Shown here in pieces: positions 2,430-64,000 of a stretch of 64,000 bases of DNA. Position 1 is the stretch's first letter; each line of letters begins with the position of its first letter. Both the position numbers and the translations under genes were made by a program. The stretch is taken from IMG/VR virus record IMGVR_UViG_3300009149_000020, positions 18,827 to 82,826 of that record; one strand, given 5' to 3'. Under the pieces are notes generated by a model. That model saw only the letters and a list, made by a program, of their open reading frames with translations. It had not been told where the DNA came from and searched no databases. This stretch comes from a virus.

Positions 2430-3932
2430 ATGCCGTTAATAAATAATAAACATTTTGTTACTGTTAAAGAAGCTACTGCACTAGGGAAGTGGAAAAGCAG
2501 TTATTCTATTTATAGACTTATTAGATTAGGCAAAGTTGATAGTATACGTATTGAGTCTAAGTTATTTATAGAAAAGGACTCTCTTTTAGATTATCTGGAT
2601 ACGGGGATTGCTTTTGTTTATAAAGGCTTTGATAAAAGTGGTGAAAGAACTTCAGTTTTATCAGAAAAGGCACTTGCAACTATTGAAGCTAAAAGCAAAC
2701 AGCAAAAAGAACGGGTTAACAAAGTCAAAAAGAATATGGCACTTTCAGGTTATGTCATGAGTAGTGACCTTAGAGAGAAATACAAGATAAGTAAATCACG
2801 TTTTAGTAGATTAATCAAGTTATATAATATAAAGGCAATGTGTTCTTCTTTAGGCAGTAGATTTCCTTTTTATAAACAAGAGGATATAAGAAACATGGTA
2901 GAAACAGAAGAACACCTTAAAGGAGACACTATGCAAACTGTAGATGCTTTTGTAGAAGAAACTTGTCTCCCTGAAGAGGATACTGTTGCTAAAAATATAG
3001 TAAAGTTTGACGGCAGTAATACTGAATGGGTGCCTTTAAGCACTGTTGCAAAAAAACTAAAGTTGACAAACGGTCAGATTAGTCGAGTAGCAAAAAAGAA
3101 GTTACACCTAGACTTAACTAGAAAATATCCTGAAGGTGACACAGATGTAAGACAAAAAGCGAAAAAAGTAAAACATGTACGTAATAAAGACATAGGAAAG
3201 TTGCTTGACTACTTTAAGGAAGACTCGACAGCTGAAGGAAGAGCAGCTATAGAAGAGTTAGTAGTAGTAAGAGAAAAAGGTTATGTAACTGTAAGTGAAG
3301 CCTCCACACTTACAGGTTGTCCTAAAACAAAAATCTATGATATGAAAAATAGAAAAGTTATAGATGCAATATCGACTGCTATTGGATGGTTTGTGCATTT
3401 GGAAGAAGTACAACAGCAGTTTGATGCAGCGAATAAAGTTGAAGTACCTATTGTAAATGAAGAGACTATACCTAAGGAGGTTACAGTTGAAAATCATGAA
3501 ATTGAAGAGGACTCTAGACAAGTTCAGGAACCTCCTAAAACTCAAAGAAAATCTTTTGAGCAACTCAAGCAGGACCTCCCCCTTGCCGCCTCTTCTAGTA
3601 ACACCTCCAAAACAGAAGGAACATTAAAAGTACAGTTACTTGGATCACTTGTTACTATTAAGAAAGGCTATTATGATGATCCAGCTGATTGCCACAAAGG
3701 TATATCTGATGTAGGTAAAAAAGAAATTAAAATAAATTGTAAAGACAAAACCATTATGTTTGACGTTGCTCTTGCGGAACTTACTAGGCAATTTTGCTGG
3801 TTGTCGGGTTATAGAAGCCATCAGATGTTGAAAAGAAATGATATTTGTCATTTAACTTCTGCATTTGTTACAGCTTTATTGAGAGAGAATGGTGATGATA
3901 TCCTCTCAACGCTTAGAGCGTGGTGTAGTTAA
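2430..3932 (+). CDS. Multi-HTH (excisionase/HTH_17-like) DNA-binding protein with degenerate C-terminal zincin-like domain
   Basis: Repeated VTVKEA..IYRLIR and VTVSEA..IYDMK winged-HTH units; C-terminal ALAELTRQF..SG in place of HExxH. Confidence 0.65.
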   Translation: MPLINNKHFVTVKEATALGKWKSSYSIYRLIRLGKVDSIRIESKLFIEKDSLLDYLDTGIAFVYKGFDKSGERTSVLSEKALATIEAKSKQQKERVNKVKKNMALSGYVMSSDLREKYKISKSRFSRLIKLYNIKAMCSSLGSRFPFYKQEDIRNMVETEEHLKGDTMQTVDAFVEETCLPEEDTVAKNIVKFDGSNTEWVPLSTVAKKLKLTNGQISRVAKKKLHLDLTRKYPEGDTDVRQKAKKVKHVRNKDIGKLLDYFKEDSTAEGRAAIEELVVVREKGYVTVSEASTLTGCPKTKIYDMKNRKVIDAISTAIGWFVHLEEVQQQFDAANKVEVPIVNEETIPKEVTVENHEIEEDSRQVQEPPKTQRKSFEQLKQDLPLAASSSNTSKTEGTLKVQLLGSLVTIKKGYYDDPADCHKGISDVGKKEIKINCKDKTIMFDVALAELTRQFCWLSGYRSHQMLKRNDICHLTSAFVTALLRENGDDILSTLRAWCS

Positions 3933-4519: not shown

Positions 4520-5461
4520 ATGAAAAGACTACTTAGGATTCCTTCAGCTAAGGCAGTACATGAAACAGATAGGTTACAGTTTTATAGAGAAACTAACTGG
4601 TCAGGTTTATCGTGGCTTTCAGATACTTCTGAAATAGTACTAAAAGAAGGCATAGAATCAGTTAAATTTAAAAAAGCACCTAACAGAAAAGGAGTAGAGA
4701 TAACTACTCATGTAGTAGACATGTTATTTAAGGATGATTATTCTTACTATGGTGACGCAACTATTTATAGTAATTTATTAGTACCTTTAATAAATAACCC
4801 CTCTGCTACATATGATGTAATAGGGCAGCCTTTTCTTGAAAATGTTGCTTCTAGGATGTCTTTAGCAAGTCTTCAAGCTATAGCTACTCTTACCTTTACA
4901 AGAAAAGCTGAACTAGAGGCATTCTTTGGACAAGCAGTGAAGGATAGAGAGTATGAGAGAGAAGTTAACAAATGTATCTGTTTAAGAACGGACCCTGAGT
5001 TATATGCTAAGCTTGTTGAAATGGGAGTATTTTTTGAGATTAACCTGGCGATAATAAAACACCATTATACAAGTAGAGAGTATGTAGTAGTTGCAGCTGA
5101 ATTACTCAAAGCATTGGTTCCAGAGAAGTATGCAGAATTTTCTAAAATAATATTTAGTGAAATAGTAAAAACTGTAGACGAAGAATGTATAGAAAGGCTA
5201 CAACAGCCGCCTTCTCCTTGGAGGTATAAAGAGGATATTCGAGCTGATTCCAAAGCTACAAAGGAAGGATGGATGGCTGTTAATAAACACGGCGAGGTCA
5301 GTAGTCTGGCTAGTGAGGGACTTAAGAATGTGAGAAGTGCTGTTCGAAGTACAGATGAAGTTTTGCCTAATTGTTATGGAGAAGCTTTTTCTCCTAAAAA
5401 CAAGCAATGTAAACAGTGTGTAATGAGGAATGATTGTCGTACTAAATTTTTGGAGTTTTAA
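4520..5461 (+). CDS. Hypothetical protein with C-terminal 4-Cys motif shared with the SSB
   Basis: 313 aa ORF; tail PNCYGEAFSPKNKQCKQCVMRNDCRTKFL. Confidence 0.75.
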   Translation: MKRLLRIPSAKAVHETDRLQFYRETNWSGLSWLSDTSEIVLKEGIESVKFKKAPNRKGVEITTHVVDMLFKDDYSYYGDATIYSNLLVPLINNPSATYDVIGQPFLENVASRMSLASLQAIATLTFTRKAELEAFFGQAVKDREYEREVNKCICLRTDPELYAKLVEMGVFFEINLAIIKHHYTSREYVVVAAELLKALVPEKYAEFSKIIFSEIVKTVDEECIERLQQPPSPWRYKEDIRADSKATKEGWMAVNKHGEVSSLASEGLKNVRSAVRSTDEVLPNCYGEAFSPKNKQCKQCVMRNDCRTKFLEF

Positions 5462-46842: not shown

Positions 46843-46859
46843 AAAAAGCTAAAAAAAGG

Positions 46860-46919: not shown

Positions 46920-47117
46920 ATGGCTCACGTGCGGGAAATCACTATTAGTTTCGGAAGAGGGGTTTCAAGAAACTACCAGACCTTTCGAATCGACAAATCA
47001 CAAGTTATTGTAATGGAAGAGGGCGACGACGCTGCAACTGTTAGACGTGAAGGTTTACGTATGTTAGTAAACGAAGTCAACAATGAGGCTGCGGAAATCG
47101 CAAAAGATTCACTTTAA
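46920..47117 (+). CDS. Small hypothetical protein
   Basis: TAAGGAGG SD; first gene after the promoter. Confidence 0.7.
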   Translation: MAHVREITISFGRGVSRNYQTFRIDKSQVIVMEEGDDAATVRREGLRMLVNEVNNEAAEIAKDSL

Positions 47118-47217: not shown

Positions 47218-47883
47218 ATGCTTTGTGCAGCTCAAAAAACTATTTGTGAGAATCTCATCAAGGCTTTCGACAAAAAACTAAAAAAGATCAGCTACAATTT
47301 TTGGTCCAAGTTTCGACATGTAGATAGAGATGACATTTATCAATACCTATGCTGTGTAATAGTACAACTGGTTGATCGAGTGTCACCACGTTATCCTAAT
47401 TATGATTTACCAGTCGGTATAGTAAATCAAGAACTTAAATTCTTGATGTCTGACTTCGCTAGAGAATTTCTAAAAGTTCAGTATAGCGAGCAGTGTTACG
47501 ATTTTGCCTCATATGAATACAGCGAAGAGTATCCTGAAAATAATAGGATACTTCATAAGTTGGACGCTCCTGGCTTTGTTGCGCAGCAAGCACGAATTTA
47601 TGAAGCTGAACTTTGTTCTATGATGGGACAGACTGAATCTGAGATATTAAAACTACGCATCGAGGGTCATTCCTTTGCTAGCATAAAGAGACAAAAGTTT
47701 ATAGGAATGTCTGACGATTGCTTTTACGATAAGGTAAAGACAGTGAAGTTGAGCGTGATAGAGTTCTTTTACGGAAAGGAACAAGTCGATGATCTCTTTC
47801 CTAAATTCTCACGTAGCCCGAGAACAACAAAGGAGGCAGACAAACCAGAATCAATCGAAGCTGAAATTGAAGCGGCAGCTTAG
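47218..47883 (+). CDS. Phage sigma-factor-like protein
   Basis: Region-2-like DRDDIYQ and region-4-like ESEILKLRIEGHSFASI. Confidence 0.6.
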   Translation: MLCAAQKTICENLIKAFDKKLKKISYNFWSKFRHVDRDDIYQYLCCVIVQLVDRVSPRYPNYDLPVGIVNQELKFLMSDFAREFLKVQYSEQCYDFASYEYSEEYPENNRILHKLDAPGFVAQQARIYEAELCSMMGQTESEILKLRIEGHSFASIKRQKFIGMSDDCFYDKVKTVKLSVIEFFYGKEQVDDLFPKFSRSPRTTKEADKPESIEAEIEAAA

Positions 47884-48448: not shown

Positions 48449-50371
48449 GTGGTTAAACGATTTCTACTTAAAGGACTTACAATACTTCCTAGGACATTCG
48501 AATTTGAATTCGGCGAAGGTTGCTACCTTTTTAAAGGCAAAAATGGTAAGGGAAAAACTACTGTGTTAGATTCCCTTCATCCAGGCGATTCCTTTATATC
48601 AAGAGGTATTAGCATTCGTGACGTATTGAAAGACGGAGGTTGCAAGGAGATAGTCGTCACAAGGGACACTGAAGATATCCTTACGAGGATTAGAAAGAGA
48701 AAAGGATCTGATGAGTTCTTTATTAGTAGGAATGGTAAGAAACACATACTAACAACAAGCGTTACCGTTTTTAGGAAAGAGATCGACAAACTGTTTCGAC
48801 CCGGAGCGTATCCGTTTATTCAGATACACTCAAAGGACACTAACTTGAGCCAGGTTCAAAATTCTGTGCTCAAACAAAAGCTGCTGAAGTTAGCTGATGA
48901 TGAAATCTTTGAAAACATACGTGCTGTATTAAAGATTAAACTAGACACAGTCTCAAAAGAGATTATACAACTTCAGGGGCAGCTCTCGGGTCTCACTCAC
49001 ACTTACGAGACTATAGAGATTTCGGAAAGTTTAGAGCAGTTGGAAGACTCGTTTGGTAAATTGAAGAAAAAACAAAAACAGGTAAATGTGTTGATAGAGG
49101 AGATGGAAGAAGATAGGACAATTTATAATAGTCTCCTGTCCACACAGACATTGTTACAATCACATGCCAGTAGATTAACTTCTGATATTACACAACTAGA
49201 AAGAGCTCTACCTAGGTTTGATACTATTAAAGCTAAGGCTGAAAAACTTGAAGCTGCTGAGGAATTGCTTGATGAAGTAAACACAAGCTTAAACTCGCTT
49301 AGAGAGCAAGAGTATGCAGAACTGAATGAGGTAGAAAAGAAAGTAAGAGTTATTGACAAACAAATGATGCAAGTAAATCAGAAAGTTGAAACTGCACAGA
49401 AGTATAAGGATGTCCCTTGTACTAAAGATTTACAGAAAACATGTCCACTAATCCCTGACTTAGACTCCTTGGAAGACTTACGAACCCAGCAAGCAACACT
49501 TAGCAGGCAAATGAGTGCCTTAGCAACTGAAAAAGCTGGTGTTATTGTAAAGTATAAAGAGGAGAAGCAAACATTAACTCTTCAGAAGACAGGCCTGGAT
49601 AAACAGATTCCAGAGCTTAGAAAGTTAAAACGGGAGGTTATGCAATTAGAAGGAAGTCTTGATAAATTACCTGAACTGCAGCAGCAGTTAGAGGATTATC
49701 AGGCGAAGTTGAAAACAGCTGCTGAAGAGTTAGAAGCATGTTATTTTTCTTCAACGGACTTAATTGTTTATCAGAGAACGAGCAACGATTTGATTCAAAA
49801 GATTAGTGATTGTGAGCACAAGAAAAAACTTGCGGCACAGCTTGCTAATCTACAGGAGACTAAATCGGGTCTTGACGAATCCTTAGAATGTCTTACTAAG
49901 GTGCAAGATAATAGATTGACTCTTAGTAAGGTTTTCTCTGTAAACGAACTTCCAGCCTTAGTATTGGTGAGTGTACTAGAATCGATTAATGATTACACTA
50001 ATGAGTTACTCGCACAATACCAACCTGAATTCTCCGTTAGAATGTTTCTGAAACCAGATGCTAGACAAACATTAGATGCTGTAGTTATACGAAATGGAAA
50101 AGAGATTCCATTCCCTATGCTATCAGATGGTGAAAGTGTTTGGATAGATAAATTCCTGAGACTAGCTTTTGCACGTATTGCACGAGACAATTATTCTTAC
50201 TTAGACTACCTTTGCTGTGACGAAGGAGAAGGTGCAATAGATAACGAGACTCGTGAAAGCTTTATATTATCTCATCAGGACTTTATCACGCGTTATGGTT
50301 TTAGTCAATTGTTTCTCGTGAGTCACGATCCGAGGGCTGAAAAATTGTTTGAAAAGGTGATTAACTTTTGA
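48449..50371 (+). CDS. sbcC: SbcC/Rad50-like ATPase
   Basis: GKNGKGKTT, long coiled coil, LSDGE signature, CCDE Walker B, VSH. Confidence 0.9.
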   Translation: MVKRFLLKGLTILPRTFEFEFGEGCYLFKGKNGKGKTTVLDSLHPGDSFISRGISIRDVLKDGGCKEIVVTRDTEDILTRIRKRKGSDEFFISRNGKKHILTTSVTVFRKEIDKLFRPGAYPFIQIHSKDTNLSQVQNSVLKQKLLKLADDEIFENIRAVLKIKLDTVSKEIIQLQGQLSGLTHTYETIEISESLEQLEDSFGKLKKKQKQVNVLIEEMEEDRTIYNSLLSTQTLLQSHASRLTSDITQLERALPRFDTIKAKAEKLEAAEELLDEVNTSLNSLREQEYAELNEVEKKVRVIDKQMMQVNQKVETAQKYKDVPCTKDLQKTCPLIPDLDSLEDLRTQQATLSRQMSALATEKAGVIVKYKEEKQTLTLQKTGLDKQIPELRKLKREVMQLEGSLDKLPELQQQLEDYQAKLKTAAEELEACYFSSTDLIVYQRTSNDLIQKISDCEHKKKLAAQLANLQETKSGLDESLECLTKVQDNRLTLSKVFSVNELPALVLVSVLESINDYTNELLAQYQPEFSVRMFLKPDARQTLDAVVIRNGKEIPFPMLSDGESVWIDKFLRLAFARIARDNYSYLDYLCCDEGEGAIDNETRESFILSHQDFITRYGFSQLFLVSHDPRAEKLFEKVINF

Positions 50372-53167: not shown

Positions 53168-56074
53168 ATGTATGTAACTTTACTGCCGCAAAAAGATCTG
53201 GTTTCACTACCAGAGGTTACCGCGACGAAACCTTACAGTAAGAAAACTCTCTTTCATCCTGAAGGATTGTATTCTGAACAGATTTTCGGGCCTGTTAATG
53301 ATTATCAATGTCAGTGTAAGTTATACATTGGCAAACTACATGAGGGTAAAATTTGCCCTTTATGTCATGTTAAGATAACAAGCAGCTTAGCAAGATTTGT
53401 TAACTTCGGAAGAATCACACTCGCATATCGCGTAACACACCCTTATATTGTATCCTTTTTGTCGAAAGAGTTCGGACAACAGAAAGTTAAAGGTATTATA
53501 TATGGAAAGAAGTTTTACAAGGTAGCGAACAAACAGCTAGAGGAAGCAGATGAGTCAGATCCCGCTAGTGGTACTGGAGGAGATTTCTTATATAAGAATC
53601 TTTTTAAACTGAACATTAGTGATAAGAACTTCAAGAAGTTTGCAATGCAGTTTAAGGACGAAATGTTTCCTTTACACATTCCGGTCCTTCCTGTAGGTAC
53701 TAGAAATATGTTGAAGGTCGATAACATTATAGTAGTCGACGATCTTAATAATATATATGTACGTATGTTAAGAAAGAACGATGCAACAAAGCGTGTATCT
53801 GTTTTTGAAAAGACATTACTCGTAGAGTATTATGAGATACAAACATTTATAGATGAGTTTTTTCAAAAGGTAGAAGAAAAGTTAAGCAAGAAGAAAGGGC
53901 TAATCAGACAGAACCTTCTAGGCAAACGAGCAGACTTTAGTTCACGTGCAGTTATTGTACCTAACCCTAAGCTTGATTTAAATACAGTGGAACTTCCATT
54001 AGAGATGTGCAAAGAACTTTATAAGTTTCACGTATTATCATATCTGATAAACAACAAACAGCTTCCTCTTATTACAGCATTCGATAAACTAGATACTTTG
54101 TCTGATGATGAGTATGTTGTAATTCTTGACGAAATACTGTCAACGAGTTGCGTTATTTTAAATAGACAGCCAACGTTACACAGATTAGGCATGATATCTT
54201 TCTTCCCGAAAGTTAAAAAAGATACATCAGCCATTGCAATTCCTGTATTGGTATGTCCTCCGTTTAATGCAGACTTTGATGGAGATCAGATTGCTGTATA
54301 TTTGCCGTTGTCGGAAGCAGCATTGGAAGAAACAAGAACATCCTTGCTAGCTGAGAATCAAATTATATCTCCTTCGTCTAGAACTGTTACTTTCCTTCCA
54401 AGTCATGATATCATTCTTGGTTTATATAAACTAACAAAGAAGGGGCCCGACAAAGCAGTATCGGAACTTAGCCCAGCTAAGAAGTTACAGACATTGATGA
54501 CACTTGACCATAATCTATGTGTAACCTACAAAGGAAATGTAACGACTATAGGTAGAGTTATATTTAATAAGATTCTGCGAGAGAAGATTCCTTTCGTAAA
54601 TGAACCTGTAACTAAAACAGTACTATATAACGTTTTACAGGCAATGGGATTAAGACCTTATTTAAAAGACATTCTTGAAGATATAAAAACAATAGGGTTT
54701 ACTACAACCACGCAAATTGGGTCATCCTTTTCAGTTACAGATTTCATGCTTCGTGAAGCTGTTAAAGCAAAAGAAACTATAACGGATGTTCGCGATATGA
54801 AAACTATGGCTGACTTGAGTGATATTATGCAAAATGAGTTGGAGGAGAATCCAGTCTTTGATATGATTAAATCTGGTGCAAGAGGAAGCTGGAAACAGGT
54901 TTCACAGATTTCATTGTTTAAAGGATTAGTTACAGACGTTGTTGGAAATATCCAATCTGATCCTATAACGAATTGTTTGATAGATGGACTTACGCCACAA
55001 GAATTTTTTAGGTCCAGTTACGGTTCAAGAAAAGGTGTTGTCGATAGCAGTCTTAATACAGGCACCTCTGGTCATTTAACACGAAAGCTTATCTTTGCCT
55101 TGTCTCCTTGCATTATCAACAAAGAGTTAGAAGATTGCGGAACTGACAGATTCTTTGATTTAGTTGTTGATGATGGTACAGTAGACTTCTTAAAAGGTAG
55201 GTATATTAAAGAAGGTGTAAAGATAGTTGAAGTTACCAAACCAGAAAAGTATTTAGGTAAAGTGGTAAAGCTACGAAGTCCTATCTACTGTCAAGGAGAC
55301 AGAGGTTTCTGTAAAAAGTGTATTGGTGGTTTTTCATGGGGAGAGCAAGTAGGCATACTTGCCGCACAGGCAATGGGAGAAAGAGCTACCCAGATGACTT
55401 TAAGAACATTTCATATGGGTGGTGTAGCTGAATCAGCTCTTGGAGAATTACTTGATAAACTGAATCATAAATTCCTAGAAATAGAAGATAATAAAATCAT
55501 AGCTTCAAAAGACGGGGATCTGTACTTAGTTGATTCAGACGATGATGCAGAAGAAGATTATTATGCAATTAAGTTCACAGGGCAAAACCCAATAGTGTTT
55601 GAAAAGATCCCTGAGATAGATTTATACCACATAGGTCACTTTACTGAGGGTACGACACTAATGAAAATAGATTTACAGAATCAAGATATTGTTAGTGACT
55701 TACGACAGCTTAGATACTTGCTTGATAATAAGAAAATATGTGCAGAGTATAAAGGTCAAAGCTTTTATAGACTCTTTAACCACTTGCTAACTATTTTCAA
55801 GAATTACGGATTAATTGATATAATCTTTTTGGAAGTGTTGTTATCACAACTTGCTTACTCAGAAAATATTCCTCTGAGATTTACACAAGCAACATTACCA
55901 GATGAGATTAAAACATTATCATCATTGCCGCTGCATACATCCATTATGCAGGGCATGGCTTTTGAAAGGTTCAAGAGCGCAGTCGTAAGAAGTTTGGAGT
56001 GTATTAAAGATCATAAACTCAGTCCTAACAAAACACTTTCTATTCTAGAGAAAATTGTTATGCTAGAGTTTTAA
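53168..56074 (+). CDS. rpoC: Phage-encoded RNA polymerase beta' subunit
   Basis: GLYSEQIFGP, Zn finger, RQNLLGKR.DFS.R, NRQPTLH, NADFDGD, TQMTLRTFH. Confidence 0.95.
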   Translation: MYVTLLPQKDLVSLPEVTATKPYSKKTLFHPEGLYSEQIFGPVNDYQCQCKLYIGKLHEGKICPLCHVKITSSLARFVNFGRITLAYRVTHPYIVSFLSKEFGQQKVKGIIYGKKFYKVANKQLEEADESDPASGTGGDFLYKNLFKLNISDKNFKKFAMQFKDEMFPLHIPVLPVGTRNMLKVDNIIVVDDLNNIYVRMLRKNDATKRVSVFEKTLLVEYYEIQTFIDEFFQKVEEKLSKKKGLIRQNLLGKRADFSSRAVIVPNPKLDLNTVELPLEMCKELYKFHVLSYLINNKQLPLITAFDKLDTLSDDEYVVILDEILSTSCVILNRQPTLHRLGMISFFPKVKKDTSAIAIPVLVCPPFNADFDGDQIAVYLPLSEAALEETRTSLLAENQIISPSSRTVTFLPSHDIILGLYKLTKKGPDKAVSELSPAKKLQTLMTLDHNLCVTYKGNVTTIGRVIFNKILREKIPFVNEPVTKTVLYNVLQAMGLRPYLKDILEDIKTIGFTTTTQIGSSFSVTDFMLREAVKAKETITDVRDMKTMADLSDIMQNELEENPVFDMIKSGARGSWKQVSQISLFKGLVTDVVGNIQSDPITNCLIDGLTPQEFFRSSYGSRKGVVDSSLNTGTSGHLTRKLIFALSPCIINKELEDCGTDRFFDLVVDDGTVDFLKGRYIKEGVKIVEVTKPEKYLGKVVKLRSPIYCQGDRGFCKKCIGGFSWGEQVGILAAQAMGERATQMTLRTFHMGGVAESALGELLDKLNHKFLEIEDNKIIASKDGDLYLVDSDDDAEEDYYAIKFTGQNPIVFEKIPEIDLYHIGHFTEGTTLMKIDLQNQDIVSDLRQLRYLLDNKKICAEYKGQSFYRLFNHLLTIFKNYGLIDIIFLEVLLSQLAYSENIPLRFTQATLPDEIKTLSSLPLHTSIMQGMAFERFKSAVVRSLECIKDHKLSPNKTLSILEKIVMLEF

Positions 56075-56090
56075 AAAGGAGAATACGTAA

Positions 56091-59000
56091 ATGAACCAAA
56101 TGCAAATCTATCCTTTTGAGAGGAAGTCAGACCTGTTAGAATTTTTCGAGTTCGATCAAGATAGGCTTAAGAATAAGATTTTTAAGATTTTTAAGTACCT
56201 GGAATACACAGGTCATGTTGAAGTAAAAGATGTTGAATTCAGCTTTAAACCTAGAGGTCTTAAGTATTATCGTCTATACAAAACTGATACATTTACAGCA
56301 AAGGTTACTTGTCAGGTAACCGATAGAGAAAATGTTATGGAGAAGATATTTTCACTACATTTGCCACTAATGCTAAACAGAAAGTTTATGATCAATGGTT
56401 ATGAGAACACTCCAGTGTTTCAGTTAGTAGACCCCTCCATAGTGTCAAGGCCTGGATTAATTTTTGTAAGATCTGCTTTTAATGATCTATCGATTGTGTA
56501 TGATAAGCTTGGAGAGAAGTGTAAGGCATACATATTCAAGAAGAAGATCCCTCTATCAACAATTCTATTTGCTGTTAATGGTTTTAGAAAAACATGTAAG
56601 CAGTTTGGAGTAGTTGCAAGAAAGAAGAAATATGATCCTGCGGTTGATTCAAAAGAACATAAAATGATCTTCAAGGATAAAAAGAATTCTCAGTGCATTG
56701 AAATTAAGAATATGGATCAACTTGACCCGCTTGGTAAAATGATTTTTATGACAGCTTGCAACGAAACGTATAGAGATGTGCTGGAAGAGTTTGCAACCGA
56801 TTCATACTTTGTAGGGATGCTAGGTTATTACTTCTTTGATAAAAGGAACTTCAAAAAGAAAGGACAAGAGATTTTAGAGAGTCTGGAAAATTCCTTCTTT
56901 GATCCGATTACAAGAGACCAGTTAAATTATGATGGAAACTTTGCAAACTTCTTAATCAAGACTATAACAGATTATAAGTCTGAGCAAGAGTTTGATTTCT
57001 TGGACCTTTCAAGACGTGTACTACGTTTAGAAGACTACTTGCTAACACCTTTATTTAAGAAAGTATTCTCTATTGTTAGAGTTAGCATGAAGTACCCACA
57101 AAGAGTTCATCACATCAAAATTAAACCTGATGAAATAATGAACTCTTTGCCGAAAGCAGAACTCCAACCTCTTGTGCAATATGATTCATCAACAAACCCA
57201 ATAGCGGAAGTAGCTAACTTTTATAAATGTTCTGTTTTCGGAATAGATGGTTTACAAAAAGATCAAGTATCCTTAGCAATGAGAAATCTACATCCTTCCT
57301 ACTATGGGGCGATATGCCCCATAGATACTCCAGATGGTCCTAACTGCGGAGTAGTAACAAACTTAACAGCTACAGCGCAACTTGATCTTGAGACGGGAAA
57401 AGTAGTGCTTGATAAAGAAATGAAAACAAAAGATGTTGTTTCTATTTCAGTAGCAACCATTCCTTTCTTAGAAAAGAATGACGGTGTTAGGTTACAGATG
57501 GGAGCTAATCAAAGTGAACAATCACTTATTCTAGAGAATGCAGACATTCCTATGATACAGACAGGTGTAGAACATATGACTGCAAAAATGAGTACGTTTA
57601 CACGTCGCAGTCCTGTTGATGGCTCAATCCTTTTTGTAAATAAGGACTTCATTATTGTAAAGTCAGATCTTACACAAAAGAATTTCTTAGTTGATACGAG
57701 AGACGAATTTACAAGAAAGAAAGTTTTCAAACAATTTAAAACTTCTGTGAAGGTTGGAGATAAGGTTACCAAGAATCAGATAGTTGCCTACGACAAGTTT
57801 TCAATCAAGGATGAGAAAACCTGCATTGGTAAAAATATGAAAACATGTTTTTATTGCTACGAAGGTTATACATACGAAGATGCTATTGTTATTTCAGAAG
57901 CTGCTTCTGAGAAATTAACACATTGGTCATACAATGTTGCTGACATTCATCTTGAACCACACGAGACATTAAAGAAGCTTAGCACTGGCTATTTACCCAC
58001 ACAAGGTGATGTAATAGTCGATGGATTGGTTGCTCGAAAGTATTCTGTTAAGCCAGAAACCCAAGTCTTATTTGATTTTGATAAAGAGACAAGAGACATA
58101 ACTATTCCTGAAGGATCTGAGATTATGCGTGTAGAGGTTTTTATTAATGATGTGCATGTACTTGATGATGATCTTGCGCAGGTTTTAGATACTATAATGA
58201 AAAAACAGATTGCAGAAGAACAGGCTCAGCTAAATGTAGTAAAAAGATTTATTGATGATCCTTTAACAGCAGAACAGTATAAGACGGAGCTTGTAAGAAG
58301 TAGCAAGATTGGTAAGTTTTATACTAACAAACATTTTGAAGGTGTACTGATTAAAGTTTATTCAAGGAAGAAGCATAAAGTACATGTAGGTGATAAGCTT
58401 GCTAACAGAGCAGGAAATAAAGGTGTTATATCTTTGATACTTCCAGAGTCAGCTATGCCTAGAGATGAGAATGATCAGCCATTCGAGGTTTGCTTAAATC
58501 CTATGGGTGTCATTACTCGAATGAATGTTGGACAGTTATTTGAGTTAACCTTAACTACTGCTTGTAAAAAGATTACAGAGATGATGTCAATCGAAAGCTC
58601 AGGAGCTGCATTACAGTTGATGACAGAGTTTATTGAGCTAATAGACAATACAGAAAAACAATGGTATTCAAAACAAGTAAAAGATAAGATAAAAGGAATG
58701 ACAAAAGCTGAGAAGGACGCTTTGTATAATGACGTTATTCTAAAGGGCCTAACTGTTTATCAGCCACCTTTCTGCTCAATCACTAAGGACAACTATCTAC
58801 AGATGTTAAAAAGGCTAGATATACAAGAAAAGCAGCATTTGTTTATTCCTGCTTATAAAAAGCGAACTACTGAACCAGTAGCATGTGGTTACATGTACAT
58901 GTTAAAGTTATTGCATACGTCAGAGTCAAAAATACATAGTAGAGCAACAGGACCTTATTCACAACTTACAGGGCAGCCTTTGCAAGGAAAAAGGAATCAA

Positions 59001-59249
59001 GGAGCACAGAGGTTAGGAGAAATGGAAATCTGGGCATTAGCAGCACATGACGCATCAGCTGTAATAAAAGAAATCCTAACAATTAAGAGTGATGATGTAA
59101 AGGGTCGTAAGATTATGATTAGAAACTTTCTAGATGCTACACCTATTACTTTACCTAACTCTGAATCTTCTTTGTCGAAGAATATATTCCTGGCTTACCT
59201 TAAAGGGTTGATGCTTGATTTGAAAAGATTCGATACTGAGGAGGATTGA
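56091..59249 (+). CDS. rpoB: Phage-encoded RNA polymerase beta subunit
   Basis: HPSYYG.ICPIDTPDG.NCG, IPFLE.ND..R..MGAN, YEDA, GDKL..R.GNKG, R.GEME.WAL. Confidence 0.95.
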   Translation: MNQMQIYPFERKSDLLEFFEFDQDRLKNKIFKIFKYLEYTGHVEVKDVEFSFKPRGLKYYRLYKTDTFTAKVTCQVTDRENVMEKIFSLHLPLMLNRKFMINGYENTPVFQLVDPSIVSRPGLIFVRSAFNDLSIVYDKLGEKCKAYIFKKKIPLSTILFAVNGFRKTCKQFGVVARKKKYDPAVDSKEHKMIFKDKKNSQCIEIKNMDQLDPLGKMIFMTACNETYRDVLEEFATDSYFVGMLGYYFFDKRNFKKKGQEILESLENSFFDPITRDQLNYDGNFANFLIKTITDYKSEQEFDFLDLSRRVLRLEDYLLTPLFKKVFSIVRVSMKYPQRVHHIKIKPDEIMNSLPKAELQPLVQYDSSTNPIAEVANFYKCSVFGIDGLQKDQVSLAMRNLHPSYYGAICPIDTPDGPNCGVVTNLTATAQLDLETGKVVLDKEMKTKDVVSISVATIPFLEKNDGVRLQMGANQSEQSLILENADIPMIQTGVEHMTAKMSTFTRRSPVDGSILFVNKDFIIVKSDLTQKNFLVDTRDEFTRKKVFKQFKTSVKVGDKVTKNQIVAYDKFSIKDEKTCIGKNMKTCFYCYEGYTYEDAIVISEAASEKLTHWSYNVADIHLEPHETLKKLSTGYLPTQGDVIVDGLVARKYSVKPETQVLFDFDKETRDITIPEGSEIMRVEVFINDVHVLDDDLAQVLDTIMKKQIAEEQAQLNVVKRFIDDPLTAEQYKTELVRSSKIGKFYTNKHFEGVLIKVYSRKKHKVHVGDKLANRAGNKGVISLILPESAMPRDENDQPFEVCLNPMGVITRMNVGQLFELTLTTACKKITEMMSIESSGAALQLMTEFIELIDNTEKQWYSKQVKDKIKGMTKAEKDALYNDVILKGLTVYQPPFCSITKDNYLQMLKRLDIQEKQHLFIPAYKKRTTEPVACGYMYMLKLLHTSESKIHSRATGPYSQLTGQPLQGKRNQGAQRLGEMEIWALAAHDASAVIKEILTIKSDDVKGRKIMIRNFLDATPITLPNSESSLSKNIFLAYLKGLMLDLKRFDTEED

Positions 59250-59250
59250 C

Positions 59251-59373
59251 ATGTATGTGTGTAGTGATTGTGGTTATAGATTCAGCAGACTTTCTGCAGA
59301 ATTTATTGATGGTGAAGAATTGTGTCCTGAATGTAAAAGTAACTTCATAAGATGGAAGGAGAAGCAAAGATGA
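59251..59373 (+). CDS. 40-aa zinc-ribbon protein (not in ORF track)
   Basis: GAGGAGG SD; MYVCSDCGYRF...ELCPECKS; stop overlaps next ATG. Confidence 0.75.
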   Translation: MYVCSDCGYRFSRLSAEFIDGEELCPECKSNFIRWKEKQR

Positions 59374-59809: not shown

Positions 59810-60565
59810 ATGGCATTTGATTGCACCGATGATGACAACAGGATGATGGCTATCCTAACTAAGCTTAGAGAAAAATATCCTATTCCTCTTGAGGATATAG
59901 AATTTGCTAGAAATCGACCAAATCCTGAACATAGGCAAGGTTATTATGAAGCTGTTAACTGGGATGACGATAACGCAAAACTAGACGCTGCTCCTAAGAT
60001 AAGGTATATTTACTATGCTAAATGGTCTTGGGAGGACGAAGCTGCTATAAAAGATATTGATCTTTCGATAAGAGCTGCTTACTTTACAAATAATCCTAAA
60101 GATGAGAGAGCTAAAGAAGCTCCAGAATTTTCTATACAGATGCAATACTTTGCCAACAACCCACTTGACCCAGTTGCAGCTGTTCATTCAAATGAATTTA
60201 TAAGACTTCAATATCATCAAGCTTCCTCGTGGAAAGACTATTCATGGTATAACGATGAAAGCATAATGATTATCAGAATGGGCTTTCTAAATTGTACTGA
60301 CTTTACTATCACAGAATCATTCTATCAAGCTCTTGAGAAACTATTCACAACGCAATTCTGCACAAGCACCGTAAACTTAAAAATTGTACTTAGAAGACTT
60401 GATGCTATAGTGCTGGCTGCTCTTGCTTTTAGAAAGATTATTGATCCAAATGTTAAAAATATTATACAACAAGTATTAAAGGAGAAACAAAATGTCGCCG
60501 AAATATCAAGATCCACGGATAGCTTACATACCGATGACTCGGACAGCCCTGAAGAGGGCTATTAG
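59810..60565 (+). CDS. WxD..A..D...IR..YY repeat protein with shared C-terminal motif
   Basis: Paralogue of 37026; tail LDAIVLAALAFRKIIDPNVKNII. Confidence 0.75.
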   Translation: MAFDCTDDDNRMMAILTKLREKYPIPLEDIEFARNRPNPEHRQGYYEAVNWDDDNAKLDAAPKIRYIYYAKWSWEDEAAIKDIDLSIRAAYFTNNPKDERAKEAPEFSIQMQYFANNPLDPVAAVHSNEFIRLQYHQASSWKDYSWYNDESIMIIRMGFLNCTDFTITESFYQALEKLFTTQFCTSTVNLKIVLRRLDAIVLAALAFRKIIDPNVKNIIQQVLKEKQNVAEISRSTDSLHTDDSDSPEEGY

Positions 60566-61145
60566 AAAACAATGTCAATTTGTTTATGCCAGGGTACTAT
60601 CTCAGAGTCCCTTAGGTAATGTGCTGTGCAATCCTTTAGTTAGTGCATGGGCTAGAGGTTTTCAATATAGATGGTACGAAAGAACAGAAGAGTTAAACTT
60701 AGTAATTCATTGGCATGCGTTAATGTTCTGTCCTAATGTTTGCAGGTTGATTAAAATGCAGCCTCAAATAGCGTGGGACGTATTTGAAAACTTATACAAG
60801 AACACAGATATAGCAATGCTTGACAATTCAACTAAGTTATTGATAGAAAACATAAACGATACTCGTACTGTATTACAAAAACTGGAACCCGGAATAAATG
60901 AGTTAGAATTAAATAGAAGAGCTAATGTATTAGGTCATCAGGTCATTCCACAGTTAGTACTTGATTTCTTCTTTAACGAGCAGTTCATAATAGCACAAAC
61001 AAAAAAGTTTTTAAGAAATTTAAATATGTTAACCGAAGTTAAACACTTACTGTTCTCTGGTGTTACACAAGCACCGTTTATGCGTGAAGGTATTACTGCT
61101 TATTTAGAAGAGAGTGAAAATAATAATAAAGAGAGTATTACTTAA
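60492..61145 (+). CDS. Hypothetical protein with shared C-terminal motif
   Basis: AAGGAG SD; tail LTEVKHLLFSGVTQAPFMREGI. Confidence 0.65.
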   Translation: MSPKYQDPRIAYIPMTRTALKRAIRKQCQFVYARVLSQSPLGNVLCNPLVSAWARGFQYRWYERTEELNLVIHWHALMFCPNVCRLIKMQPQIAWDVFENLYKNTDIAMLDNSTKLLIENINDTRTVLQKLEPGINELELNRRANVLGHQVIPQLVLDFFFNEQFIIAQTKKFLRNLNMLTEVKHLLFSGVTQAPFMREGITAYLEESENNNKESIT

Positions 61146-61146
61146 C

Positions 61147-61314
61147 ATGAGGACTTTAAATACCGGAGCATTTTTATTCGTTGATACTGATGGCGAGCTT
61201 TCAGTCAGGATAAGAACAGACGTCTCTGGTATAGGTGAGTTCGACGAAGTAGTAAAGATACCGAAGGATGATGCAGAGCAGTTGCTCGAGTGGTTAACTA
61301 AAAATAAAAAATAA
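61147..61314 (+). CDS. Small hypothetical protein
   Basis: ATG 61147 directly after previous stop. Confidence 0.55.
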   Translation: MRTLNTGAFLFVDTDGELSVRIRTDVSGIGEFDEVVKIPKDDAEQLLEWLTKNKK

Positions 61315-61319
61315 AAAGG

Positions 61320-61348
61320 TTGACAAGTACGTTTTTCGGGTCTATACT
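61320..61348 (+). promoter_or_regulatory. Sigma70-type promoter of the tRNA operon
   Basis: A-tract, then TTGACA-17nt-TATACT. Confidence 0.85.
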
Positions 61349-61373
61349 CATATTAAGAAGGAAACTAAAACAA

Positions 61374-61484
61374 ATGTTATCACGAATGAGAAATTATTTT
61401 AGCACAGTATCAGGAACCGTACAGGGTTGTTCCATTAATATAAAATGGAATAATGATGCGGAACATTCGGAGTTATATATGTAG
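61374..61484 (+). CDS. Attenuator leader peptide (36 aa, MLSRMRNYFSTVSGTVQGCSINIKWNNDAEHSELYM)
   Basis: AAGAAGGA SD; 19 of 20 amino acids and 27 distinct codons; stop lies in the antiterminator arm. Confidence 0.75.
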   Translation: MLSRMRNYFSTVSGTVQGCSINIKWNNDAEHSELYM

Positions 61485-61535
61485 TTGCCTTTTTACACAT
61501 AAAGATAGAAACCCAAAGCTGGGGAGGCAACTACA
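61480..61535 (+). promoter_or_regulatory. Antiterminator helix
   Basis: TGTAGTTGCCT (61480-90) is the exact reverse complement of AGGCAACTACA (61525-35), extendable by 4 G-U pairs. Confidence 0.8.
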
Positions 61536-61551
61536 CCTCCTCAGCTTTTTT
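61515..61551 (+). terminator. Intrinsic terminator (attenuator) immediately before the first tRNA
   Basis: AAAGCTGGGGAGG-caactaca-CCTCCTCAGCTTT then T-tract. Confidence 0.88.
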
Positions 61552-61560
61552 GTTATTAAC

Positions 61561-61647
61561 GGAGAGATAGTCTAATTGGCAAGACAGCAGGCTGTAACCC
61601 TGTCGCTAAAACTAGCATTGGAGGTTCGAGTCCTTCTCTCTCCACCA
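61561..61647 (+). tRNA. tRNA-Tyr(GTA)
   Basis: Cloverleaf, long variable arm, encoded CCA. Confidence 0.9.
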
Positions 61648-61654
61648 GACATTG

Positions 61655-61727
61655 GGTGGTATGTAGATTAGATCCCTGGCTTAGGGGAAGACGTCTTAAC
61701 CTAAGTGAAGACTAATAGAACGCCACC
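61655..61727 (+). ncRNA. Candidate rod-like structured RNA inside the tRNA array
   Basis: Nested stems GGTGG/CCACC, ATTAG/CTAAT, CTTAGG/CCTAAG, AAGA/TCTT. Confidence 0.4.
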
Positions 61728-61758
61728 GCTATTAAGCCAAGGTAAAACTTGGTAGAAC

Positions 61759-61835
61759 GTGGCCGTTGGCAAAATGGATAAGCCACCAGATTGTGGTTCT
61801 GGTCATTGGGGGTTCAAGTCCCCTCGGTCACCCCA
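61759..61835 (+). tRNA. tRNA-His(GTG)
   Basis: Cloverleaf, C73, CCA; position -1 is C, not G. Confidence 0.9.
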
Positions 61836-61911
61836 GCGGGTGTAGCTCAGTTGGTAGAGTTCCTGCCTTCCAAGCAGACTGTCGCGAGTTCGAGCCTCGC
61901 TACCCGCTCCA
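61836..61911 (+). tRNA. tRNA-Gly(TCC)
   Basis: Cloverleaf, CCA. Confidence 0.92.
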
Positions 61912-61949
61912 GAAAATTATACTCAGGAGGGTATAAAAATATAACAAGT

Positions 61950-61976
61950 AGGGGTATGGTGTAGTCTGGTAACATG
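61950..61976 (+). pseudogene. 5' fragment of a tRNA (Pro-like acceptor strand plus D-arm)
   Basis: AGGGGTATGGTGTAGTCTGGTAACATG stops at the anticodon stem, abutting tRNA-Trp. Confidence 0.5.
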
Positions 61977-61977
61977 T

Positions 61978-62052
61978 AGACCCGTGGTGTAATGGCTAGC
62001 ATTACTGTCTCCAAAACAGTTGATGAGGGTTCGAGTCCTTCCGGGTCTGCCA
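61978..62052 (+). tRNA. tRNA-Trp(CCA)
   Basis: Cloverleaf, G73, CCA. Confidence 0.9.
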
Positions 62053-62061
62053 AACAAATGA

Positions 62062-62138
62062 AGCCGAGTGTCCGAGTGTGGCTCAGGTGGAAGACTGCAA
62101 ATCTTTCTACGTCGGTTCAAGTCCGACCTCGGCTTCCA
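62062..62138 (+). tRNA. tRNA-Cys(GCA)
   Basis: Cloverleaf, U73, CCA. Confidence 0.9.
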
Positions 62139-62139
62139 A

Positions 62140-62216
62140 GGACCAGTAGCTCAAATGCGTAGAGCTCCCGGCTCATAACCGGATGGTTGAAGGTTCGAGT
62201 CCTTTCTGGTCCACCA
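62140..62216 (+). tRNA. tRNA(CAT), most likely Ile2 (lysidine type)
   Basis: GGACC acceptor and CGG-CTCATAA-CCG arm resemble bacterial tRNA-Ile2; elongator Met not excluded. Confidence 0.75.
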
Positions 62217-62255
62217 AAAGATTAAGGAGAAGATAAATATAGAAGTAAGTTAAAT

Positions 62256-62332
62256 GGGTCCGTAACTCTAATTGGGAGAGTGTCTGCCCTGCAAGCAGAA
62301 AGTTGAGAGTTCGAGTCTCTCCGGATCCACCA
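62256..62332 (+). tRNA. tRNA-Ala(TGC)
   Basis: G3-U70 pair, CCA; C at position 33. Confidence 0.88.
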
Positions 62333-62340
62333 GAAAGTAA

Positions 62341-62417
62341 GCCCTGGTATATCAATTGGCTAGATAGTCGGTTTTGTAATCCGAAGGCTGTAGGTTCGAG
62401 TCCTACCCAGGGCCCCA
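62341..62417 (+). tRNA. tRNA-Thr(TGT)
   Basis: Cloverleaf, CCA. Confidence 0.9.
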
Positions 62418-62427
62418 AATATTACGT

Positions 62428-62515
62428 TGAGCGATGACCGAGTGGTCGAAGGTGGATGGCTGTTAACCATTTAGGAGAAATCCTCACGTAGGTTCAAATC
62501 CTACTCGCTCAGCCA
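62428..62515 (+). tRNA. tRNA-Asn(GTT) with long variable arm
   Basis: U1-A72, G73, CCA; AGGA-GAAA-TCCT variable stem. Confidence 0.85.
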
Positions 62516-62525
62516 AACTTTACGT

Positions 62526-62601
62526 GGTCCCATCGTCTAATGGCTTAGGACGGCAGACTTTCTATCTGCAAATGTCGGTTCGATTCCGACTGGGACTACC
62601 A
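62526..62601 (+). tRNA. tRNA-Glu(TTC)
   Basis: Glu-type body GGTCCCATCGTCTA; loop CTTTCTA (U37). Confidence 0.85.
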
Positions 62602-62611
62602 AACATTACGT

Positions 62612-62686
62612 CGGTGTGTAGCCAAACGGTAAGGCATCGCCCTTTTAAGGCGAGGATTGGAGATTCGACTTCTCCCACACCGACCA
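62612..62686 (+). tRNA. tRNA-Lys(TTT)
   Basis: Cloverleaf, CCA. Confidence 0.88.
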
Positions 62687-62758
62687 GCTAGTAAGTATTA
62701 ACATATATAACAATAGTTTTTAATGGAGGTACGGTAGTAATAACAGTTTAAGAAACGT

Positions 62759-62836
62759 TGCGGGATGACGCAGTCTGGTCAGCGTGCAAGCCTCATAAGC
62801 TTGAAGTCGAGGGTTCAAATCCCTCTCCCGCTACCA
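62759..62836 (+). tRNA. tRNA-Met(CAT), initiator-like
   Basis: 1:72 mismatch (U:U), TTCAAAT T-loop; lacks the three consecutive G-C anticodon pairs. Confidence 0.8.
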
Positions 62837-62837
62837 A

Positions 62838-62913
62838 GGGTGATTAGCTCAGCTGGGAGAGCACCTCTTTTACACGGAGGGGGCCGGCAGTTCAATCCTG
62901 TCATCACCCACCA
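62838..62913 (+). tRNA. tRNA-Val(TAC)
   Basis: Cloverleaf, CCA. Confidence 0.92.
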
Positions 62914-62914
62914 G

Positions 62915-62990
62915 GCGGTTATAGTTCAGTTGGAAGAACATCTGCTTGCCATGCAGAAGGTCGTGAGTTCGAACCTCACTAACCGCTCCA
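62915..62990 (+). tRNA. tRNA-Gly(GCC)
   Basis: Cloverleaf, CCA. Confidence 0.92.
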
Positions 62991-62991
62991 C

Positions 62992-63073
62992 GGTGGTATG
63001 GTCTAGTTAGGTCTAGGACGCCTGGTTGTCAGCCAGGAAACTTTCGGGGGTTCAAATCCCCCTACCACCGCCA
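62992..63073 (+). tRNA. tRNA-Asp(GTC)
   Basis: Cloverleaf, G73, CCA; slightly enlarged variable loop. Confidence 0.88.
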
Positions 63074-63075
63074 AA

Positions 63076-63162
63076 GGAAGGCTCGCCTAATTGCGCAGGG
63101 CAGCAGACTTGAAATCTGCCGGGGTAAAACCTGTGGGGGTTCGAATCCCTCGCCTTCCGCCA
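63076..63162 (+). tRNA. tRNA-Ser(TGA)
   Basis: Long variable arm, G73, CCA. Confidence 0.9.
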
Positions 63163-63169
63163 AAAGTAA

Positions 63170-63244
63170 AGCCGAGTGGTGTAATCGGCAACACGAAAGA
63201 CTCTGACTCTTTCGTTCAAGGTTCAAATCCTTGCTCGGCTTCCA
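63170..63244 (+). tRNA. tRNA-Gln(CTG)
   Basis: Cloverleaf, CCA. Confidence 0.88.
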
Positions 63245-63251
63245 GATATGT

Positions 63252-63327
63252 GCCGCTTTCGTATAGTTGGTCTGTACGCTGGATTGAAGCTCCAGAGGTC
63301 TCCGTTCGATCCGGAGGGGCGGCACCA
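63252..63327 (+). tRNA. tRNA-Phe(GAA)
   Basis: Cloverleaf, CCA; G37. Confidence 0.88.
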
Positions 63328-63335
63328 AATATTGT

Positions 63336-63411
63336 GCTCCTGTGCGCCAACTGGATGGCAAACGGCCTTCTAAGCCGTAACATGCAGGTTCGAGTCCTGC
63401 CAGGAGTACCA
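63336..63411 (+). tRNA. tRNA-Arg(TCT)
   Basis: Cloverleaf, CCA. Confidence 0.9.
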
Positions 63412-63419
63412 GTAAGTGA

Positions 63420-63496
63420 GGGGATGTGGCGCAACTGGACAGCGCTACTGACTTCGGATCAGAAGGTTGAGGGTTCGAATCCTTCCATCCCCGCCA
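63420..63496 (+). tRNA. tRNA-Arg(TCG)
   Basis: Cloverleaf, CCA. Confidence 0.9.
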
Positions 63497-63567
63497 AACC
63501 CTTCGCACCAAGTGCGACAGTGAAACACCTGTGGGTTAAGATGTTTGACATTATATAGTTATTGCGT

Positions 63568-63643
63568 GGCCCTATAGTTTAGGGGTTTAGAATACTGGCC
63601 TCTCAAGCCAGAGACAGCAGTTCGATTCTGCTTAGGGCTACCA
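63568..63643 (+). tRNA. tRNA-Glu(CTC)
   Basis: Cloverleaf, CCA. Confidence 0.88.
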
Positions 63644-63744
63644 AACTTCTTCAGTGAAAAATTAAGAAAAAATAGGTAGTTTTTCTTACAATTTTTTTTA
63701 AGGTTACTGATCTTTTTCTATGAAAACAATAAGGAGGAAATGTT

Positions 63745-64000
63745 ATGAAATGTCAAAAGTTTGAAGTCAACTTCGTTTCTTATGATGGCAAGTACCCTTG
63801 TCTATGTTTCGGCACACTTGTGCTCTCATTAAATGGTAAGAATATAACTTTTCCTTCATCTTGTTTGTCTTCCGGAGGAAGTACGTACTTCACCAATGAT
63901 TATGCAGAGAGTCATGTAGAACGAGGGTCTTGGTCTATAAGCGACTGGCCTGAAGGTTGGCCTGAATGTGCAAAGAGACAAGCGGAAGATGTTGTTAACA
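63745..64000 (+). CDS. Conserved phage hypothetical protein, 5' part (runs off window)
   Basis: TAAGGAGG SD; MKCQKFEVNFVSYDGKYPCLCFG..LSSGGS. Confidence 0.7.
   Translation, partial: MKCQKFEVNFVSYDGKYPCLCFGTLVLSLNGKNITFPSSCLSSGGSTYFTNDYAESHVERGSWSISDWPEGWPECAKRQAEDVVN

Follow-up and report, generated by a model that had tools for sequence, protein, structure and literature searches.

Amino-acid operons of enterobacteria are controlled by leader-peptide attenuators, as in trpL, hisL, pheL, leuL and the multivalent thrL and ilvGMEDA. In these systems a short open reading frame (ORF) close to the promoter is followed by an intrinsic terminator, one strand of which is also part of the antiterminator. 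A ribosome terminating on the leader masks the antiterminator strand, which also has an upstream partner (the 1:2 pairing), and the terminator is favoured at equilibrium while the decision is kinetic; in trp, for example, the terminator wins at equilibrium, so the switch there is kinetic too. T-boxes are alike in that tRNA status sets the choice between terminator and antiterminator, but in their case uncharged tRNA is bound directly and translation plays no part, and the genes that they control are synthetase and amino-acid genes.

Two explanations are current for phage tRNA genes: they assist codon usage, or they make good the host tRNAs that defence nucleases destroy. To our knowledge, hardly anything is known about the control of their expression. 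In Anabaena sp. PCC 7120, the trn operon, an accessory array of 26 tRNA genes, is silent under normal conditions and is induced when translation is impaired; however, a leader, attenuator or terminator is nowhere mentioned in that paper (PMC8421152), and a later paper reportedly places the operon under the transcriptional repressor TrcR (PMC10272220). Our full-text literature searches returned no account of tRNA genes under the control of an attenuator, whether in phages or in any other setting, in agreement with an earlier note on this DNA, which knew of none for phage tRNA genes.

Here we analyse a locus in an uncultured large phage in which a short ORF and a terminator stand between a promoter and 21 tRNA genes. 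In its sequence and in-silico folds it resembles the amino-acid-operon attenuators in the respects listed above, with a candidate for the upstream partner, and we lean towards reading it as a leader-peptide transcription attenuator that senses the decoding served by its own downstream tRNAs. Amino-acid-operon attenuators control biosynthetic enzymes, whereas the regulated genes here are tRNAs; classical leaders (his, trp, phe) contain tandem runs of one to three amino acids, whereas this leader samples 20 anticodon types with one to four codons each; and the signal would be tRNA supply or integrity rather than the amino-acid supply alone. Relative to the literature that we found, a tRNA operon under leader-peptide attenuation, its leader holding at least one codon for each tRNA type, would be new.

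Genomic setting

The window analysed is a 64-kb stretch (64,000 nucleotides) that forms the final 64 kb of an 82,826-bp virus contig with a GC content of 36.7%; positions are those of the window. In the ORF lists, every ORF of more than 150 aa lies on the + strand, so every plausible gene is on that strand. The phage encodes the β′ (53168-56074, +, 968 aa) and β (56091-59249, +, 1052 aa) subunits of an RNA polymerase (RNAP), both unsplit and very diverged and in the order β′-β, followed after β by a 40-aa Cys4 zinc-ribbon ORF (59251-59373). Its genome is probably about 250 kb, because a relative at 84 kb was rated 33% complete by CheckV. The contig most likely comes from a subsurface metagenome, which is the DNA run that matched it best, and identical fragments of the phage occur at low depth in aquatic and soil sequencing runs. 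Other DNA contigs matching the region proved to be unrelated tRNAs, and no RNA sequencing runs matching this DNA were listed. Pfam and PHROGs gave nothing useful for the small proteins neighbouring the cassette.

Anatomy of the cassette

A promoter, a leader ORF, a terminator and the tRNA array follow one another on the + strand in an order and at a spacing consistent with attenuation. The promoter is of the sigma-70 type with an A-rich upstream tract (AAAAAGG-TTGACA-17-TATACT, 61313-61348, +); its TTGACA-17-TATACT core at 61320-61348 matches 11 of 12 consensus positions and is the best promoter site across 58-64 kb. The extended motif, AAAAAGGTTGACA...TATACT, has two copies in the 82.8-kb contig, at 61313-61348 and at 46853, which look like one class of host-type promoters. 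The second copy precedes a 65-aa ORF (46920-47117) and then a gene at 47218-47883. Neither product had a Pfam match, and a 'sigma-like' label for 47218-47883 has no Pfam support.

Judging by the spacing after the -10 hexamer, transcription probably starts near 61355. The predicted 5′ end of the transcript and the Shine-Dalgarno region together make up what we call segment 1 (AAGAAGGAAAC, 61355-61366, +). The Shine-Dalgarno sequence itself, AAGGA, lies 11 nt 5′ of the leader ATG and is a moderate match, weaker than the GGAGG of the phage's genes. The leader ORF (61374-61484, +) runs from the ATG at 61374 to a TAG at 61482-61484 and has 36 sense codons for 19 amino acids, with no Pro. Inside it, an 11-bp A/U-rich hairpin (61426-61454, +; -9.4 kcal/mol) is present in the folds of all partial transcripts and is possibly an RNA polymerase pause or synchronising hairpin. 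The leader peptide has no homologues, the search giving one spurious match among 1.84 billion representatives, and its sequence is therefore unlikely to matter as protein.

An intrinsic terminator follows at 61515-61557 (+), consisting of a 13-bp stem (7 G-C pairs) with an 8-nt loop at 61515-61548 and then T6GTT, with a stability of -21.3 kcal/mol; it is the strongest in the contig, and a strict terminator scan of all 82.8 kb found only one other of comparable quality. The array begins 12 nt past the terminator stem with a tRNA-Tyr at 61561 and comprises 21 genes (61561-63643, +), identified with ARAGORN and all 21 scoring above the gathering score of Rfam RF00005. It has 20 distinct anticodons for 17 amino acids, with none for Leu, Ile(GAU) or Pro, and the CCA end is encoded in all 21 genes. 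An Rfam scan of 60500-64000 at E up to 1 returned the tRNAs and sub-threshold noise only, with no match to the T-box model. The earlier note had described this series of parts, from near-consensus promoter, 36-codon ORF and hairpin to strong terminator and first tRNA, and each was found where it had been placed. It had also named transcription from a promoter downstream of the terminator as an outcome that would count against attenuation; we found no credible one, the sole candidate being a 9/12 match at 62898 that lies within the tRNA genes and was rejected.

Alternative structures in the leader RNA

A terminator between a promoter and its tRNA genes would be bypassed here by an alternative helix. 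Segment 2, the 5′ strand of the antiterminator (61480-61494, +), includes the last sense codon and the TAG stop of the leader, and segment 3, the 3′ strand (61521-61535, +), takes up most of the 5′ arm of the terminator and its entire loop. The two pair exactly as the earlier note had proposed, through 11 Watson-Crick and 4 G-U pairs, and the stop codon (61482-84) does lie inside the antiterminator arm. The core of the helix is a perfect 10 bp between 61480-89 and the top two G of the terminator plus its whole loop (duplex -19.6 kcal/mol). When the upstream RNA is paired with the 5′ arm and loop of the terminator, the best duplex has an energy of -21.4 kcal/mol. This value was reached in 1 of 3000 dinucleotide shuffles (P = 3e-4) and, elsewhere in the contig, in 4 of 845 windows (0.005). 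The leader RNA as a whole folds better than 200 of 200 shuffles (z = -4.6). The terminator and the antiterminator exclude each other, and their energies are close. A pseudoknot joining the antiterminator core to the lower terminator stem was rejected on the steric argument that a 10-bp helix would have to be bridged by the remaining 2 nt.

Transcripts were folded from the predicted start (about 61355) to successive 3′ ends. In early partial transcripts, the 5′ untranslated and Shine-Dalgarno region pairs first with 61484-94 (1:2); for RNA ending at 61535-61540, the minimum-energy fold is the antiterminator (2:3); and for ends from 61545 on it is the 1:2 pairing together with the terminator. 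We then masked a ribosome footprint in RNA ending at 61540. With the mask at the stop codon, the probability of the antiterminator was 0 and that of the terminator pairs 0.81, whereas a mask at codon 12, 25 or 30 gave 0.85-0.97 for the antiterminator and 0.00-0.10 for the terminator pairs. When both conformers were folded in this way the structure thus switched, in silico, as had been predicted: a ribosome at the stop masks the antiterminator and a ribosome stalled earlier frees it. Once the full terminator has been made, terminator plus 1:2 wins at equilibrium in every ribosome condition, so the switch can only be kinetic, and read-through would depend on a kinetic window.

Segment 1 pairs with 61484-94 within the minimum-energy fold of the full leader, although the 1:2 duplex on its own amounts to only -8 kcal/mol. 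In the folding model it is a candidate anti-antiterminator that would also sequester the ribosome binding site. It belongs to the 5′ untranslated and Shine-Dalgarno region, whereas segment 1 of the amino-acid-operon leaders is coding sequence; a ribosome stalled mid-ORF covers segment 1 in trp but leaves it uncovered here. This pairing, which the earlier note had overlooked, bears on a further claim made there, that failure to initiate translation would switch the array on just as an earlier stall would. The part on stalling is borne out in silico by the masked folds. The part on initiation is not established, because with 1:2 present in the minimum-energy fold an untranslated RNA may terminate, as in trp superattenuation.

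Codon content of the leader

If the leader were read as a sensor of the array, its codons should be those that the array decodes. Under standard wobble rules, by which G34 pairs with C or U, U34 with A or G, and C34 with G, the leader holds at least one readable codon for every one of the 20 different anticodons. Random ORFs drawn from the codon usage of the phage cover 13.0 ± 1.7 (s.d.) anticodons and reached 20 in only 76 of 10 million draws (P = 7.6e-6 against this null). Of 3642 real 36-codon windows taken from genes of the phage, none covers 20, and when 176 small ATG ORFs from the six frames were compared, the next best covered 17. The match can be split into two levels, as all 17 array amino acids are present in the leader (P = 0.0044) and, given the peptide, the choice of synonymous codons contributes again (P = 0.0051). 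It is also specific to the reading frame, with 20 anticodons covered in the frame of the ORF against 10-13 in the other five.

The position of the codons was compared with that of segment 2. For 18 of the 20 anticodon types, the leader has a codon 19 nt or more before segment 2, such that a ribosome stalled there would leave this segment free, while the His codon (16 nt) and the Glu-CUC codon (10 nt) are too close to work cleanly. Each tRNA type is sampled by one to four codons with no tandem runs, and it is doubtful that the leader is sensitive to a mild tRNA shortage. The commonest leader codon is AAT, which occurs four times.

Comparison with other phages

A similar arrangement occurs in phiCbK, a Caulobacter phage (NC_019405). 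There, gp335 (49540-49677), annotated as a 45-aa CDS, is followed by an annotated terminator (49745-49769) and then by a block of ten tRNAs; it covers 10 of the 10 block anticodons (P = 0.004), and tRNAs of the block decode 23 of its 45 codons (P = 1.4e-4). A 32-codon ORF covers 7 of 7 anticodons of a second block (P = 0.01), and for a third, tiny block the codon match was not significant. The first two ORFs (3041-3178 and 4842-4940 of locus L059, which is NC_019405 46500-53500) precede annotated terminators and are built from the amino acids of their blocks, the first from Pro/Lys/Leu/Ala/Ser and the second from Phe/Val/Ile/Gln. phiCbK thus shares with our phage the succession of small ORF, terminator and tRNA block and the coverage of all block anticodons, but the sequences are not similar, and the two phages belong to unrelated lineages with unrelated hosts. 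It also differs in that its tRNAs are split into blocks, each with a leader rich in few amino acids, whereas here one leader stands before a 21-gene array. The phiCbK ORFs are annotated only as hypothetical proteins, and we found no paper assigning them a function.

As controls, we used three phage arrays (L063, L065 and L071) that had been sampled arbitrarily through the anticodon arm of an unusual Asn tRNA (see below). In L063 and L065 the array is preceded by an ORF and a terminator, but the codon match is not significant; L071 has neither ORF nor terminator. These results show that the coverage test can fail and that a codon match is not universal.

Relatives that might carry the cassette were also sought. 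The searches yielded only two near ones (L001 and L002, the latter the same as L057), with about 60% identity in RNAP β, and the next matches are at or below 33% over the full length. The two β homologues at about 60% are P0004 and P0005, and L001 and L002 were recovered by an alignment-based scan; the synteny of these loci with the window ends two genes after β, and tRNAs are present neither at the corresponding site nor anywhere in the 84-kb record of L057. Among 57 RNAP-related loci, none had a phage tRNA array nearby. No close DNA relatives of the cassette were found in the phage collection and no close protein relatives of RNAP β or of a neighbouring 217-aa protein in IMG/VR, and that 217-aa protein matched only itself among 5.8 billion proteins. 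The downstream ORF had one match, at 42% (L073), in a locus without tRNAs. A search with the promoter motif, which is too generic, gave more than 120 matches, none before a tRNA array, and the anticodon arm of the Asn tRNA as a query returned only ordinary, unrelated phage arrays. No relative searched carries the cassette, hence there is neither covariation nor a conserved stop position to draw on.

Proposed mechanism and alternatives

The sequence anatomy, the pairing and codon-match statistics and the switching in silico are results; leader translation, the start site, pausing, kinetic competition and a physiological trigger are inferred, and the whole can be joined as follows. Transcription would start near 61355 at a host-type promoter, and a ribosome would load on the nascent RNA and translate a leader that needs every downstream tRNA type. 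With smooth decoding, the ribosome would reach the TAG at 61482 and cover segment 2 (61480-94), the terminator (61515-48) would form, and most transcripts would end before tRNA-Tyr. Slow reading of any sampled codon, with its tRNA scarce, cleaved or uncharged, would stall the ribosome upstream; segment 2 would then be free to pair with segment 3 (61521-35) before the 3′ arm of the terminator emerges, and with the antiterminator formed RNA polymerase would read through into the array. New phage tRNAs would restore decoding and shut the switch, a negative feedback. As the sampled codons are those that the array tRNAs read, tRNAs would be supplied on demand and the supply would then shut itself off. 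Candidate triggers are anticodon nucleases, tRNA decay during infection and a mismatch between the host tRNA pool and the codon usage of the phage. The phage would thus probably make its tRNAs mainly when leader codons are read slowly, though the RNA polymerase that it encodes may respond in another way to this promoter and terminator. We are evenly divided on a stronger form of this proposal, in which the leader acts as a pan-tRNA test strip, one frame polling 20 tRNA types so that the loss of any one stalls the ribosome, opens the terminator and has the set replaced by feedback.

The earlier note had recognised in this locus the logic of amino-acid-operon attenuation, and the exclusive helices, the placement of the stop and the masked folds uphold that logic in silico, with three points revised: the fate of untranslated RNA and the purely kinetic nature of the switch, both treated above, and the specificity of the sensor. 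It had further supposed that the array is on when translation generally fails. The attenuation logic behind this stands, but the sensor looks codon-specific (20 anticodons, P of about 8e-6) and less like a general gauge. Counted against an attenuator are the moderate Shine-Dalgarno sequence, the few codons per tRNA type and the fact that the case consists of one sequence.

Several other explanations start from the same parts. The region could be a self-contained cassette, in which the promoter serves a small gene or a small RNA of about 200 nt with its own terminator, and the array is reached by constitutive leakage through that terminator or by the phage polymerase reading in from the genes upstream. 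The phage encodes such a polymerase, the genes upstream all run along the same strand uninterrupted by terminators, the terminator of the cassette dominates thermodynamically and the leader RNA is highly structured (z = -4.6), all of which would suit a cassette of this kind. We nevertheless consider it unlikely, as it leaves unexplained both the stop codon inside a 15-bp complement of the terminator and the sampling of every downstream anticodon, and the peptide has no homologues and the RNA no Rfam match. Closer to our own proposal is a translation-coupled attenuator without codon specificity, which would report only whether ribosomes translate and would owe its coverage to the diversity of the peptide. 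Its structural logic is identical, single codons sense a mild shortage poorly, and L063 and L065 have an ORF and a terminator before their arrays with no significant codon match; coverage as a by-product, however, leaves the 20 of 20 unexplained, at a P of about 8e-6 and with significance at both the amino-acid and the synonymous level, which makes this reading quite unlikely.

The alternative helix might also serve an end other than ribosome sensing, namely the processing or stability of the 5′ leader of the pre-tRNA, the binding of an antitermination factor of phage or host, or a switch that binds tRNA. The terminator is just 12 nt from the 5′ end of tRNA-Tyr, and in E. coli terminator hairpins reportedly affect RNase P processing of tRNA transcripts (PMC2241853). 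Yet neither a T-box nor any other Rfam match was obtained at E <1, and the frame-specific codon match indicates translation, so that we hold such a role to be very unlikely. That an accidental ORF and an accidental complement came to lie beside an ordinary terminator would be easier to argue from a single sequence with statistics chosen after the fact. But pairing and coverage yield two separate small P values, the stop codon falls inside the antiterminator strand, and the locus had been flagged for its structure and not for its codon content; chance on this scale seems highly improbable.

If the attenuator reading is true, textbook attenuation would extend to a new gene class and the locus would provide the first case of feedback in which a ribosome directly gauges the supply of tRNA; phages would be predicted to sense attacks on tRNAs and to answer on demand. 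If the test-strip form is true, then together with phiCbK it would point to a widespread, undescribed attenuation control of tRNA genes. The leader would also be a compact natural decoding sensor of use to synthetic biology.

Features of the tRNA genes

Several genes of the array depart from the usual tRNA forms. The tRNA with the Asn anticodon GUU (62428-62515) measures 88 nt, has a 3-bp D stem and a long, base-paired variable arm of class II shape, and bears G73, G2:C71 and A3:U70. These three features presumably resemble seryl-tRNA identity elements, whereas GUU and G73 are what we take to be asparaginyl elements; the tRNA may be charged ambiguously or may be a Ser-type body recruited to Asn codons. 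The tRNA-Asp (62992-63073, 82 nt) has an unusually long variable loop of about 10 nt.

Near-universal rules of the anticodon loop are broken in tRNA-Ala(UGC), which has C33, and in tRNA-Glu(UUC), which has U37 (62256-62332 and 62526-62601, respectively). Deviations of this type are the kind of change proposed for nuclease evasion, and C33 and U37 may have to do with escape from anticodon nucleases.

Gaps of about 66-111 nt without a tRNA or Rfam match occur in the array at 61648-61758, 61912-61977, 62687-62758 and 63497-63567, and may be decayed tRNAs or unrecognised small RNAs. Within them, 61680-61709 is able to form a CTTAGG/CCTAAG hairpin, and 61953-61977, directly before tRNA-Trp, resembles the 5′ half of a tRNA.

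The two tRNAs with a CAU anticodon (62140-62216 and 62759-62836) differ from each other. The second has a U1-U72 mismatch, but its anticodon stem is without the three G-C pairs typical of initiators. In the first, the acceptor stem carries C4 and C5, which we take as a resemblance to tRNA-Ile2 of the lysidine type; an ATA codon occurs in the leader ORF.
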